A model generated the notes under the pieces. That model searched no databases. It worked only from the letters and a program-made list of their open reading frames with translations, and was not told where the DNA came from. Shown one piece after another: positions 9,825-59,780 of a stretch of 64,000 bases of DNA (position 1 is the first letter of the stretch; the number at the start of each line of letters is the position of its first letter). The stretch comes from a virus (Duplodnaviria > Caudoviricetes). Position numbers and translations under genes: made by a program. The DNA lies in IMG/VR virus record IMGVR_UViG_3300005739_000025; one strand, 5' to 3'.

Positions 9825-11624
9825 GTGGCAGAATACGGAAACGCAGCAACAGGTAGAGAATCTACATTTGGTAAATCGTTAATGAATTACATTAACTCTT
9901 ATTTACCATATGGTTCATACAATACTTTAGAAACAATTGATAAGTTAAATCCTAAATTTACTGAATTTCAAGACACAGGTTCTAGACGTACAGAAGCTCT
10001 CGCTAAACAATCAATTTCTTCTTCCACACAATTTAATAATGAATCTCCTGCTGCCTATTTTAATATAGATACCAATTTCTCACAATATATGTATGCCAAT
10101 ATTCAGGCAGACAAAATTGCTAGATTGAGAGATTATAGAGTGATGGGAGCTTTCTCAGAGGTTTCAAACGCGTTAGATGAAATATGTGATGAATGTGTTA
10201 ATAAAAATGATAACGGTCAAATTATAAAGGTAGCGTTTAGAGAAGATGATTTTTCATCAGAAATTAAAACAGCAGTAGAAGAAGAGTTTCAAAATTATAT
10301 TAGATATTTTGAATTAGAAGAAAAAGGCTGGGAGTATTTCCGTAGTGTGCTGACAGATGGTGAGGTTTATTTTGAACACATAATACATAAAGATTATACA
10401 AAAGAGGGTATTTTAGGTGTTGTTATCATACCTACTGAGCTTGTAGATCCCATTTACGGTAACGTACAAAATATGATTGTAAAGGGTTATCTTTTAAGAA
10501 AGCCTGTATTTGATCCTAAGAACCCACAAAAGATTTTAGATTATCAATTAATACCCTTAGATAAAAACCAAGTTACTTACATTAACTCTGGGGTTTGGAA
10601 TGAAAATAGAACAATGCGCATTCCATTTATCGAAAATTGTAGAAGAGCTTATAGACAATTAAGCTTAATTGAAGATTCTGTAGTTATCTATAGATTAGCT
10701 CGCGCCCCTGAAAGATTAGTATTCAACGTTGATGTAGGAACAATGTCCCCACCTAAGGCTGAAGCTTATTTAAAACGTTTAATGACCCAGTACTGGCAGA
10801 AACGTACTTTTGATTCTTCACAAGGTGGTCAAGTAACTAAATTCAACCCTCAAAGCTATCTTGACAATTATTGGTTTGCAAGAAGACAAGGGTCAGAAGG
10901 AACATCAGTAACAAATTTACCTGGCGCTCAAAACCTAGGTGAATTACAGGATTTAAAATATTTTCAAGAGAAGTTATATGAGGCACTTAAAGTGCCCAAG
11001 AATAGACTAAACAAAGAAAGTGCTTATAACGATTCTATTAATATGCTCAGAGAAGAGCTAATGTTTGCAAAGTTTATTGTTAGAGTTCAACAAAAATTTG
11101 CTGCCGGTCTTAAAAATGGCTTTATTACACACTTAAAATTAAAAGAAGTTTGGGAAAAGTATGATCTCAAAGAATCAGCATTTAATTTAGAGTTTACACC
11201 TCCTACCAATTTCTATGAATTAAGAGAGTTTCAAAAATTAGAGATTAAAGCAAACGCTTTTAACACAATGGTTCAAAATGAGTCTATTTCTAAAACATAT
11301 GCTCAAAGAAAATATTTAAAATGGTCAGATAAAGAAGTAGTTCTTAATAGGGAGTTTTTAAGAAAAGATAAAGAATTCGAATGGGAGCTAGCACAAATTA
11401 CGGCTGGTGGTCCCAACTGGAAGCTACAACAAGCACAAGGCGCTGCACCCGCAGAAGGTCAACCAATGGCCGCTGGCGCTCCAACAGGTATGCCCGGTGA
11501 AGGAGAAGTACCACCACCGACCGAGGGTGGGGAGGTTCCACCTGAGTTCGGACCTGCACCAGCTGCTCCTGCTCCAGAAGGAGGTGCAGAGCCTACTACT
11601 ACAGCTCCTACACCTACAACATAA
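9825..11624 (+). CDS. gp20: Portal vertex protein (T4 gp20-like), with a Pro/Gly/Ala-rich C-terminal tail
   Basis: YRLARAPERLVFNVDVGTMSPPKAEAYL, YWFARRQGSEGTSVTNLPG, LYEALKVP, REELMFAKFI; GTG start. Confidence 0.95.
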   Translation: MAEYGNAATGRESTFGKSLMNYINSYLPYGSYNTLETIDKLNPKFTEFQDTGSRRTEALAKQSISSSTQFNNESPAAYFNIDTNFSQYMYANIQADKIARLRDYRVMGAFSEVSNALDEICDECVNKNDNGQIIKVAFREDDFSSEIKTAVEEEFQNYIRYFELEEKGWEYFRSVLTDGEVYFEHIIHKDYTKEGILGVVIIPTELVDPIYGNVQNMIVKGYLLRKPVFDPKNPQKILDYQLIPLDKNQVTYINSGVWNENRTMRIPFIENCRRAYRQLSLIEDSVVIYRLARAPERLVFNVDVGTMSPPKAEAYLKRLMTQYWQKRTFDSSQGGQVTKFNPQSYLDNYWFARRQGSEGTSVTNLPGAQNLGELQDLKYFQEKLYEALKVPKNRLNKESAYNDSINMLREELMFAKFIVRVQQKFAAGLKNGFITHLKLKEVWEKYDLKESAFNLEFTPPTNFYELREFQKLEIKANAFNTMVQNESISKTYAQRKYLKWSDKEVVLNREFLRKDKEFEWELAQITAGGPNWKLQQAQGAAPAEGQPMAAGAPTGMPGEGEVPPPTEGGEVPPEFGPAPAAPAPEGGAEPTTTAPTPTT

Positions 11625-23176: not shown

Positions 23177-23902
23177 TTAATTGTTTTTAGTCGCAAAATT
23201 ATTCCACCTTTCTGTATTACTTAATTCCTGCTTGGAGTTTAACTCTACATGTCCATCAAAATAAGCCACTACGGCTTTATTATTATACCTATAATCTACC
23301 TCCCCGACAGCTCCTCTAGTTTCAGGACCCGCCACATCAAAACACCCCCTATGTTCTGCTCCTTCCATTTTACTAATCGCAAATACAACTAGTTTAGAAG
23401 GTTCATTAACCTGAGTGATATTAGTTACTACTGATTTATTGCCTCTATCTGGTGAAACAGGAGTACCGTACTTACCCCCAACATAAGTACCATTCATACC
23501 AAATGTTGTAAAAACTGTTACTAGATAAGAATACATACTATCATCTGGAGGAGCAGCTTTCTGATTGTTAACCATTAAGATGTTAATACTATAATCTATA
23601 TAAGGCGCAAGTCTCCATGGCCATCTTTTTGCAGCATGGGACATGACTGGCTTACCTTTATCGTCTAATACTTTACCTGGTTTAGGGTCCATAGCTTTAA
23701 TTAATCGCCCTCCATTATCAGCTGCGTAAGCATGAAACCCTGCCATTAATGCTCTACCTGCATGAACCTCTCTTCCCTTTTCAGCAGATTTTATATAACT
23801 AGAATAACCTGAAAAACCAATAGCAGCTAAAATGGTTATAACTGCTATAGATACTAATAGTTCAATTAACGTAAAAGCCCTTGCATATCTTAAAAAGTTC
23901 AT
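23177..23902 (-). CDS. Prepilin-type N-terminal cleavage/methylation protein with H-X9-DG-type C-terminus
   Basis: AFTLIELLVSIAVITILAAI; YRYNNKAVVAYFDGHVE. Confidence 0.9.
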   Translation of the reverse strand: MNFLRYARAFTLIELLVSIAVITILAAIGFSGYSSYIKSAEKGREVHAGRALMAGFHAYAADNGGRLIKAMDPKPGKVLDDKGKPVMSHAAKRWPWRLAPYIDYSINILMVNNQKAAPPDDSMYSYLVTVFTTFGMNGTYVGGKYGTPVSPDRGNKSVVTNITQVNEPSKLVVFAISKMEGAEHRGCFDVAGPETRGAVGEVDYRYNNKAVVAYFDGHVELNSKQELSNTERWNNFATKNN

Positions 23903-23918
23903 ATATTATATATATACT

Positions 23919-24680
23919 ATGAAAATATTATTTCTAGGAATTACATATTTTTTTACTTTAATTTCTATTCTACACTCTCAAATTATTACTGTAAATATGG
24001 GAGGAACTACTAGTTTTTCTTCTTGGTCTAATATAAATTCTTTTAACTATTCAGGCTACGGCTCATTTCCAGGAAACACTCCATGGCCTGCACCTATAAG
24101 AGCTACACAAGGTTCAACAAATTCAACTTTAAATAGAGTTACTGGTTCCCCAACAGGTGGAGGACCATTTCTAGCATCAGAATCAATATATTTTGGCAAT
24201 TTCAGTCAAATTCCAAATGCATTAGGAGGAACACTTAGACTGTCTAATTCTATTTCTTTAACAAATATTAAAACTCTTGTACTGCAAATACAAATAGGAG
24301 AAGCAACAGGGTATGATTTCTTTACACCTACTGGTTTTCCTAAACTCTCTTTAAACGGAATAACAAATTTTGCTGCTTACACCAATCTTGTTAATAGATA
24401 TCAAAATGGTACATTTCCTAGTCCTGAAACAGGGTTAGATGAACCCGTATATGTTAATACATGGGCGTACCAATGGAAAATTACAAATGCATCAGTAAAC
24501 AGCTATTTTGTAGATTTTAGCGCGGTAACACACGCCCAGGTCTACAACATCAGATGGGATAGCTCTTCCATGGCATATAACACGCCAGTTATTCCTGAAC
24601 CATCTACTATTGGTTTGCTGGCCTTTAGCGCTGCTGGGTTTGCCGTTTACATTTATAGAAAGAGAAAAAGAAGTAAATAG
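23919..24680 (+). CDS. PEP-CTERM sorting-domain surface protein
   Basis: Start reassigned to ATG 23919 (signal peptide MKILFLGITYFF); C-terminal VIPEPSTIGLLAFSAAGFAVYIYRKRKRSK. Confidence 0.9.
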   Translation: MKILFLGITYFFTLISILHSQIITVNMGGTTSFSSWSNINSFNYSGYGSFPGNTPWPAPIRATQGSTNSTLNRVTGSPTGGGPFLASESIYFGNFSQIPNALGGTLRLSNSISLTNIKTLVLQIQIGEATGYDFFTPTGFPKLSLNGITNFAAYTNLVNRYQNGTFPSPETGLDEPVYVNTWAYQWKITNASVNSYFVDFSAVTHAQVYNIRWDSSSMAYNTPVIPEPSTIGLLAFSAAGFAVYIYRKRKRSK

Positions 24681-42414: not shown

Positions 42415-42603
42415 ATGTATATTGTTAAAGTAGGAAAAGAAGAAGGGGCTCTTGAAAAAGCTCTTAAAAGGTTGAAATCTAAGATAATAGAAGATGGTCT
42501 TATGGAAGAATTATATAGACTTAGAGCTTTTGAGACCCCCAAGGAAAAGAAAAAGCGAAAACTTAGAATTAGATCTAAAGTATTTACTCGAAATAAATCT
42601 TGA
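42415..42603 (+). CDS. rpsU: Ribosomal protein bS21
   Basis: LEKALKRLKSK...GLMEEL...AFETPKEKKKRK. Confidence 0.85.
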   Translation: MYIVKVGKEEGALEKALKRLKSKIIEDGLMEELYRLRAFETPKEKKKRKLRIRSKVFTRNKS

Positions 42604-58402: not shown

Positions 58403-58803
58403 TGAAACTTAAAGGAAAAGCATATTTTGTAAAAAAATTCTCAAATAATATATTTGGAAGCGATGAAGCTGATAGAATTATAAAATCTTCCAAAAATGTT
58501 AAAGGTAAAAGAAATATAGCACTCTATAAAGTATCTCCCCCCATTAAAGGACATCAATATGTTGTAGTTAGTAGTGTTAAAATAGAGATACCTATGAACA
58601 AAAAAGAAAGTCATATTATTCAAGAGACAATGGTATTTTTTTCTAATCATAAAGGGGATGTGGAATTTGGTCAAGAGTTTAAAACCTTTTACGGCTTCTT
58701 ACCCCATGATAAAGTGTTAATGGATATCGGCTATGAGCTTGTAGAGTTTAAGCTTAAACCAGAAACAGAAAAATATTTTGGAGACATTTTAAGAGAACTA
58801 TGA
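58402..58803 (+). CDS. Hypothetical protein with shared C-terminal tag
   Basis: ends LKPETEKYFGDILREL. Confidence 0.7.
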   Translation: MKLKGKAYFVKKFSNNIFGSDEADRIIKSSKNVKGKRNIALYKVSPPIKGHQYVVVSSVKIEIPMNKKESHIIQETMVFFSNHKGDVEFGQEFKTFYGFLPHDKVLMDIGYELVEFKLKPETEKYFGDILREL

Positions 58804-59222
58804 GTAAAAAATTAGAAGATGGTTATTTTTTAGACGATGGAAGAACGGGTATTGTTTATAAACCTATAAAATTAGGAGATTATGATGTATTTTTTAGTAA
58901 CGGTCTATTTTTTACTTTAGTAAAAGATGAAATAGTTACAGGTTACAAGTTTTACTCGTTAATGCACATAACCGCAAAAAAACATGGATTAAGTATAAAG
59001 TCTGTTCCAAAATGGCCCAAAGAAACGTTAATGTGGGGTCATGACTTTTTAAATAAGTTTGATCAAAATTTACCATATTTGTGTATAGTTAAACCTTGGA
59101 CGGTTCCGAGAAAATATTTTGATACAGGAGCTGCTCAATACTATAGTTTATACAAAAAGCCTTCTAAATTAATGAAACCTAAAACAAGAAAACATTTCGG
59201 AGACATAATAGATAATTTATGA
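58800..59222 (+). CDS. Hypothetical protein with shared C-terminal tag
   Basis: ends MKPKTRKHFGDIIDNL. Confidence 0.7.
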   Translation: MSKKLEDGYFLDDGRTGIVYKPIKLGDYDVFFSNGLFFTLVKDEIVTGYKFYSLMHITAKKHGLSIKSVPKWPKETLMWGHDFLNKFDQNLPYLCIVKPWTVPRKYFDTGAAQYYSLYKKPSKLMKPKTRKHFGDIIDNL

Positions 59223-59332
59223 GTGATAAAGTAGAAGAGATTAAAGAAGCTATTTCTAAACTAACTATTGAAGAGGTAAATGAATTAGCCGAAAAGCTAA
59301 AAGATATACTTAAACTAGATGAAGACATTTAA
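59219..59332 (+). CDS. 37-aa peptide resembling the N-terminal dimerisation domain of ribosomal protein bL12
   Basis: MSDKVEEIKEAISKLTIEEVNELAEKLKDILKLDEDI; ATGA overlaps on both sides. Confidence 0.6.
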   Translation: MSDKVEEIKEAISKLTIEEVNELAEKLKDILKLDEDI

Positions 59333-59780
59333 GACATTTATAACCGAGAATGTGATACAAATGAGTGCTACTAGAGCTACTAAAGAGTATCCTTTTGTTT
59401 CTGAGCTAGACGATCAAAGTATAAAAGAGCTTTTATTAATTAGAAAGCCTGAAGACATTAAATCGGTATCTCTTGAAGCTATGTGGATGGATGATAGTGT
59501 AGAGTGTTACGGTATTATATTAAATGGAGTAGTTATGGGATTGTGGTGGTACGGACCTCATATTAAGGGATATCTACAAAAATTTAACGATAAACTAGAC
59601 GCTAAGAACAGAGCATTTCTACAAAAAGAAGTATTTGAAATTTTAGAAAATGAAAAACAGAGAATATACGATGAAGCAGGAGATGAAAGATTAGATAGAA
59701 TAGAAAAAGAAATAGAAATGCTTGATAAAATGAAACCTAAAACAAAAGAGTATTTCTATGACATAATGAAAGAACTATGA
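59319..59780 (+). CDS. Hypothetical protein with N-terminal MKTFKTFITE propeptide and shared C-terminal tag
   Basis: ends MKPKTKEYFYDIMKEL. Confidence 0.7.
   Translation: MKTFKTFITENVIQMSATRATKEYPFVSELDDQSIKELLLIRKPEDIKSVSLEAMWMDDSVECYGIILNGVVMGLWWYGPHIKGYLQKFNDKLDAKNRAFLQKEVFEILENEKQRIYDEAGDERLDRIEKEIEMLDKMKPKTKEYFYDIMKEL

Follow-up and report, generated by a model that had tools for sequence, protein, structure and literature searches.

A 37-codon open reading frame (ORF) of a large T4-like phage encodes a protein, P0001, that is almost certainly homologous to the dimerisation and uL10-binding N-terminal domain (NTD) of ribosomal protein bL12 and that ends at the hinge. It is an NTD homologue, yet it fails as bL12 proper on hinge, head and operon, and from its sequence we infer that a dominant-negative or modulatory stalk peptide is the best mechanism for it. 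The DNA analysed (64,000 nucleotides, hereafter the window) is part of this phage. Its portal gene (9825-11624) matches T4-type portals at approximately 30%, it carries 21 tRNA genes, and a protein identical to P0001 is on record on a 244-kb contig. The ORF, its parts and its junctions were located as follows.

59219..59332, + strand: bL12 N-terminal-domain-only protein P0001, 37 aa, net charge -6, ATG to TAA
59219..59222, + strand: 4-nt start/stop overlap (ATGA) with the upstream tagged gene 58800-59222
59225..59257, + strand: predicted helix 1 (P0001 residues 3-13), including K9
59228..59311, + strand: match to PF16320 positions 1-28 and to T. maritima L12 residues 2-29 (P0001 residues 4-31)
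59258..59266, + strand: K-L-T turn joining both helices, with no variation at L15 or T16 across 36 family members
59267..59308, + strand: predicted helix 2 (P0001 residues 17-30), with E19, E22, L23 and L27 conserved
59312..59332, + strand: short acidic tail in place of a Gly-Val/Ala-rich hinge, then stop
59319..59332, + strand: 14-nt overlap with the downstream tagged gene 59319-59780

A bL12 NTD without hinge or C-terminal domain had been proposed here in an earlier reading of the letters (the first-pass annotation), and that proposal is now backed by profile, family, selection and structure evidence. The 37-aa plus-strand ORF was borne out, and the residue pattern by which it had been recognized is present (I8, E10, I12-S-K-L-T16, E19, E22-L23 and L27). 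The ORF had been called unannotated; it is indeed nameless in public annotation, but public gene callers do call it. Translational coupling on both sides had also been put forward; the two overlaps exist but are ordinary here, because overlaps of 1-14 nt join the genes at every junction of the surrounding cluster, and they do not by themselves establish coupling. The last four codons of P0001 double as the start of the next gene, whose product is left unaltered by the one change seen in them (I37V); the tail is thus under constraint from the neighbour.

The best Pfam match of P0001 alone was PF16320, the bL12 dimerisation domain (E 1.1e-4). The HMM comparison proposed in the first-pass annotation gave a divided answer, since P0001 scored 22.3 bits, under the cut-off of 25, whereas its relatives at L212, L227 and L241 exceeded it (28.1, 29.0 and 26.1 bits). 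PF16320 was the top Pfam match of P0001, P0002 and the L010 copy in identical register, and the best PDB sequence matches of P0001 were N-terminal fragments of T. maritima L12 (E 0.003). Using a profile of nine family members, the T. maritima L12 NTD was reached at E 1.8e-7. ESM Atlas features gave PF16320 clusters at 0.85-0.89, taken at the level of a lead.

A bL12-NTD profile was then made from 69 cellular sequences and used for scoring. All 2000 plain shuffles, and likewise all 2000 shuffles preserving the hydrophobic/polar pattern, fell short of P0001, P0002 and the L010 copy; L008, which is the most distant copy, did not beat the pattern-preserving kind. In a search of 5,139 six-frame segments (window plus a complete relative), the P0001 ORF scored 20.2 bits and its homologue 31.1, and the next segment reached 8.3. 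With the phage profile run over whole bacterial genomes in six frames, rplL was the best match in two Bacteroidota genomes, and a scan in the same direction of 151 Verrucomicrobiota genomes had rplL as its three best matches.

Single-sequence searches returned little. P0001 retrieved only itself by phmmer among 1.84 billion representatives (E 1e-3), nothing significant by tblastn among 50,697 cultured-phage records, and no useful match in PHROGs or NCBIfam. Pattern and locus searches of viral and metagenome contigs with P0001 or a four-sequence alignment were empty, and it took a looser motif to reach the family; one DNA sequencing run with a small share yielded short pieces only, and no RNA run was listed. 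A SAP/HeH motif (L-T-V-x-E-L helix, Gly, loop, helix) was considered and rejected, given that in P0001 a helix comes before the L-T turn and the chain terminates after the second helix; neither P0001 nor its homologues matched SAP or Rho_N in Pfam. Separately, a 34-aa viral ORF containing K-L-T-V-K-E-L recurs (L243:5011-5115, L194, L258, L261 and L274). Its weak matches are to PF16320 (15.6 bits) and SAP (14.9 bits) alike, and it is probably unrelated to the NTD-only family.

A model predicted from 36 family sequences consists of a helix (3-13), a turn and a second helix (17-30), with a pLDDT of 81. Among 48,161 chains, L12 NTDs took ranks 1, 2 and 4. The structural match named as a test in the first-pass annotation was therefore found, the best being Thermotoga L12 (1dd3_C; Z 4.8, rmsd 0.6 A over 32 residues); the model was also aligned to 1rqt (Z 4.4, 2.4 A over 36) and 6gaw_CL (Z 3.5, 0.9 A over 31). 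Low Z values are expected for so short a chain, and this line is not independent of the sequence match, because Z is low and the predictor may recall solved L12 structures. Foldseek of the 37-residue model against the PDB returned nothing, and VIA-align with a first model from four sequences gave generic helices and no L12 chain. As in the bL12 NTD, P0001 would be predicted to form an antiparallel dimer that binds helix 8 of uL10. A complex of four peptides and the last 51 residues of a verrucomicrobial uL10, predicted from alignments A1 and A3, scored 0.18 against a mark of 0.32, with controls that did not fold, and counts neither for nor against binding.

Syntenic copies reached via neighbouring genes are 95% (L001), 49% (L010) and 32% (L008) identical to P0001, and a loose motif scan of viral contigs yielded a second group of 40-44 aa (L212, L224, L227, L241, L291 and L296). 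Both are joined by a family profile, whose search covered proteins of 18-76 aa only. The family comprises 35 clusters at 90% identity, 29-60 aa in length, from T4-like phages of 150-244 kb, and PF16320 is on record for most. E22 and L27 are, like L15 and T16, invariant across 36 sequences. One member, P0028 (60 aa, on a 546-base contig), has an extended tail that seemingly repeats the end of helix 2.

Eight of nine representatives form one clade (100/99), with the long-branch L008 copy unplaced. Over codons 3-31, the 28 pairs compared in the main clade had pN/pS values of 0-0.24, and the window against L001 gave 0.17; judged from these ratios, the main clade is under purifying selection. Among the diverged copies of the tagged clade the ratio was 0.5-1.26 (1.26 for the window against L010), computed from few and partly saturated sites. 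Family, clade and pN/pS data together indicate a gene that is real and selected, the window copy being among the more diverged. The gene is dispensable, given that two tagged relatives (L004 and L012) have no copy at this locus.

In order to establish what is retained from bL12, the phage family was compared column by column with 93 cellular bL12 NTDs over P0001 positions 8-31. Eleven of these columns (8, 9, 12, 15, 17, 18, 20, 23, 24, 27 and 31) are at least 80% hydrophobic in the cellular NTDs, and the phage family is at least 94% hydrophobic at ten of them. The exception is position 18, which is polar in the phage family and likewise in Bacteroidota. The turn residues T16 and E19 of cellular bL12 are kept. 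At position 9 a hydrophobic residue stands in 95% of cellular bL12 and in 94% of the family members, with Lys only in P0001 and P0002, and P0001 departs from the hydrophobic register at K9 and E18. Position 31 is aromatic in the family (Phe in 88%) and Leu in P0001. Position 30 is hydrophobic in the phage family, unlike in cellular bL12, the Gly after helix 2 is lost, and the G-V (32-33) that opens the cellular hinge is absent. Partner preference may have shifted, since the family differs at 18 and 30 and has lost this Gly.

The phage proteins start no more than 1-2 residues away from where bL12 usually does, and the similarity stops at the hinge. What follows is a short acidic tail (net charge of the family -3 to -7), and no Ala/Gly/Val-rich hinge follows the NTD in family members of 29-60 aa. 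A search for the head domain (PF00542) through all six frames of the window and of 25 phage loci reached 1.4 bits at best, and neither a bL12 head domain nor uL10 was found in three relatives that are 92-100% complete. The ORF as one half of a split or frameshifted bL12 was accordingly dropped, the head being present in no frame of the window, in none of the 25 loci and in none of the three relatives. With head and uL10 both missing from the three relatives, any partner would have to be a host protein. The neighbours of P0001 are phage genes, and the gene does not follow rplJ in an rplJL operon.

Six tagged genes surround P0001 (58046, 58402, 58800, 59319, 59777 and 60220). As the first-pass annotation had observed, P0001 is the sole untagged ORF between them, lacking the K-P-x-T...F-x-D-I C-terminal tag. 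The functional tie to the tag cluster that this implied did not hold up, because three near-complete relatives carry the gene elsewhere, among small accessory genes of a variable region, and have no tag motif across the whole record. Its place in the cluster is therefore incidental, and P0001 as a component of a tag system was dropped. These three relatives (G434, G435 and G436; loci L212, L224 and L241; 92-100% complete) have portals 49-50% identical to that of the window phage and many window genes in common, and since the tag motif is absent from them the tag system is confined to a sub-clade. A sigma-70 promoter scan of the tag cluster found fewer sites than in shuffles.

Several features of the neighbourhood are recorded here in their own right. 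The product of the downstream gene (59319-59780, + strand) starts M-K-T-F-K-T-F-I-T-E and ends in the C-terminal tag; its first ten residues presumably resemble a T4 capsid-targeting sequence, and it has a weak match to PHROG 7857, internal virion protein (E 0.23). The start of this gene is kept in L001, L004, L008 and L010, and a TAAATA box lies 5 nt before its ATG in L008, as it does before the ATG of window gene 52588. In the two relatives without the NTD-only gene, L004:9107-9946 and L012:3482-4285 are two-unit fusions of tagged units, in which L-T-E follows the internal tag. L004:858-8290 (- strand), immediately upstream of the tag cluster, holds three big inserted reverse-strand genes (1271, 933 and 266 aa; LCCL domain) that are absent from the window. 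Between L001 and the window the NTD peptide is 95% identical and the upstream gene only 54%, while between L010 and the window the downstream gene is 82% identical and the NTD peptide 49%. This mosaic at 58800-59332 suggests recombination at gene borders.

The phage also carries its own copy of a second ribosomal protein.

42415..42603, + strand: ribosomal protein bS21, 62 aa (PF01165, 37.7 bits)

Phage bS21 co-occurs with the NTD-only gene: it is present in all three near-complete relatives that have the gene, at a distance of approximately 7 kb in G434. The window bS21 matches Verrucomicrobiota at up to 43 bits and 55% identity (35 of 201 genomes at E 1e-6), and its best score in Bacteroidota was 24.6 bits. 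The window also contains a prepilin-type gene and a PEP-CTERM gene (23177-24680), a host-like envelope pair; homologues of the PEP-CTERM gene were found in 4 of 201 Verrucomicrobiota genomes and in none of 201 from Bacteroidota. By these matches the host is probably a member of the Verrucomicrobiota, a call held as probable rather than firm because the comparison comprised Verrucomicrobiota and Bacteroidota only.

The donor of the peptide was approached in the same manner. A four-sequence profile ranked Bacteroidota NTDs top (median 21.6 versus 4.9 bits), with some verrucomicrobial NTDs scoring equally high. Using the 36-sequence profile several phyla ranked equal, and the tree gave no donor. 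A Bacteroidota-type peptide with a Bacteroidota host was consequently dropped, the larger profile being phylum-neutral and bS21 and the PEP-CTERM gene pointing to Verrucomicrobiota. The bL12 proteins of the genomes with the best bS21 match ranked 26-56 of 104 against the P0001 family and are thus not especially close.

The bL12 NTD (approximately residues 1-37 in E. coli) dimerises and attaches to the C-terminal helix of uL10, while IF2, EF-Tu, EF-G and RF3 are recruited by the head (PMC3299993, PMC6753160, PMC10931766). On the reading we favour, a host rplL copy would have been captured and truncated to its two-helix NTD, and the peptide would pair with itself or with host bL12 and occupy uL10 sites, leaving ribosomes with fewer factor-recruiting heads. 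Judged from sequence, we give a headless stalk peptide of this kind an even chance of being correct. The outcome would be host translation tuned down or biased rather than shut off, because the phage needs the same ribosomes, and there is no obvious benefit in weakening them, which counts against this reading. With one dimer fewer, IF2-driven subunit joining is approximately 2-fold slower and EF-G steps approximately 1.6-fold slower, EF-Tu steps are normal, and the growth rate of cells with such ribosomes is halved (PMC3299993).

These phages invest in translation, with bS21 and the tRNA genes of the window. A Shine-Dalgarno-like word precedes only 4 of 48 long ORFs in the window, and 15 of 27 TAAATA boxes before a long ORF lie 5-6 nt from the ATG. 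Speculatively, messages whose translation begins on intact 70S ribosomes would gain if subunit joining slowed, and this would suit the apparently leaderless late genes of the phage. The full proposal, that large T4-like phages of (probably) Verrucomicrobiota remodel host ribosomes by combining a headless bL12 with their own bS21, so setting head number and shifting initiation to leaderless late messages, is judged unlikely.

Other explanations accept the bL12 origin and place the action elsewhere. The peptide may act off the ribosome, as a decoy or adaptor for a host defence sensor, modifier or protease that recognizes the bL12 NTD, or as a small dimerisation module for phage proteins. The family-specific changes at 18, 30 and 32-33, the conserved acidic tail and the want of a clear match to the bL12 of the probable host would agree with this, as would the location of the gene among small accessory genes of a variable region, where counter-defence genes often reside. 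The bL12 hydrophobic pattern and L-T-x-x-E turn are, however, wholly kept, as expected if the native surfaces are in use, and the literature searched names no defence system that senses the bL12 NTD. An off-ribosome role is for these reasons considered rather unlikely.

The target could instead be free uL10, with a peptide-uL10 complex binding and repressing the rplJL leader, or with uL10 drained so that stalk assembly is starved; either would alter rplJ-rplL and possibly rpoBC expression. Free uL10 is scarce, and a slow effect on ribosome synthesis would fit a lytic cycle poorly. In E. coli and B. subtilis L10(L12)4 represses rplJL translation (PMC10931766), and L10 alone binds RNA far more weakly than the complex does (PMC1635324), so an NTD might serve as co-repressor. 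RNA recognition nevertheless resides in uL10, and the literature searched shows no such regulation in Verrucomicrobiota. The first-pass annotation had raised a mimic affecting L10-operon autoregulation; that is a possible reading, weaker than the stalk reading because uL10, not bL12, is the RNA-binding repressor (PMC10931766). Action through free uL10 is on the whole improbable.

Alternatively, the family may be functional while the window copy drifted or was repurposed after moving into a late tag-bearing operon. The window copy is diverged by the measures used here (below the Pfam cut-off, K9, a long branch): P0001, P0036 and P0049 all sit on long branches, copies of the tagged clade are 32-49% identical to each other whereas the untagged clade is tightly conserved, and the gene is lost in L004 and L012. 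Set against this, the window and L001 differ outside the overlap by seven silent codons and one replacing codon, and all three diverged copies retain frame, start position and hydrophobic register, which makes drift of the window copy quite improbable. A chance likeness (a generic amphipathic helix pair or SAP/HeH-like motif), which could draw on the sub-threshold Pfam score, the lone phmmer match, the K-L-T-V-K-E-L ORFs and the L008 shuffles, is very improbable and largely refuted by the shuffle and decoy tests, the relatives above the cut-off, the profile match to L12, start and end points that coincide with the bL12 NTD, and the structure ranks.

The ribosomal proteins known from phages are understood as replacements for host copies, and the NTD-only copy cannot be such a spare part because the anchor is kept and the working head dropped. 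If P0001 binds the stalk, it would be a regulator or inhibitor and a new phage route to translation control. It would then be a natural tool for asking what ribosomes need four to eight bL12 copies for, and it would mark the uL10-bL12 interface as a target blockable by a 30-residue peptide. Under the full proposal above, it would also be the first natural protein tuning stalk stoichiometry. Phage bL12 head domains are already published; for the NTD-only copy we found no paper, our literature search, of incomplete coverage, having returned no description of such a phage protein. L7/L12 is listed in huge phages with no detail (PMC7162821). Some family members carry the JGI automatic name 'ribosomal protein L7/L12', so surveys may have counted NTD-only members without noting the truncation, and phage 'L7/L12' annotations mix head-only, full-length and anchor-only proteins.

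Compared with bacterial bL12 (L7/L12, rplL; PF16320; 1DD3/1ZAV and 1RQT), the phage family has the same two-helix hairpin, L-T-x-x-E turn, register, start and acidity. It is polar at 18, hydrophobic at 30 and without the Gly after helix 2, and P0001 is phage-encoded and lacks the hinge, C-terminal domain and rplJL operon of the bacterial protein. The phage bL12 of Mizuno et al. 2019 is also captured stalk sequence, often alongside other translation genes; those matches belong to the Ribosomal_L12 family, that is, the C-terminal head with its uL11, EF-G and EF-Tu contact residues, and the main text is silent on NTD-only forms (PMC6375957). P0001, in which the Ribosomal_L12 (C-terminal) domain is absent, is the complementary half.

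Full-length bL12 with both Pfam domains and a diverged hinge occurs on putatively viral IMG/VR contigs (L187:2956-3318, L189:8746-9111, L202:3871-4245 and approximately 50 more loci). The NTDs of these 120-124 aa proteins match the family profile as strongly as any cellular one does (27-35 bits), and hinge and head are kept (PF00542, 79 bits), so they could replace host bL12, whereas the NTD-only family cannot. Phage bS21 (Mizuno et al. 2019; Chen et al. 2022, PMC9723584) is likewise a small exchangeable ribosomal protein in phages, but it is an intact 30S substitute, whereas P0001 is a truncated piece of the 50S stalk. The closest physiological parallel is E. coli JE105, with one L12 dimer (PMC3299993), in which fewer heads correspond to the state predicted from P0001; there the state was made by laboratory deletion of a uL10 site, whereas P0001 is proposed as a natural competitor.
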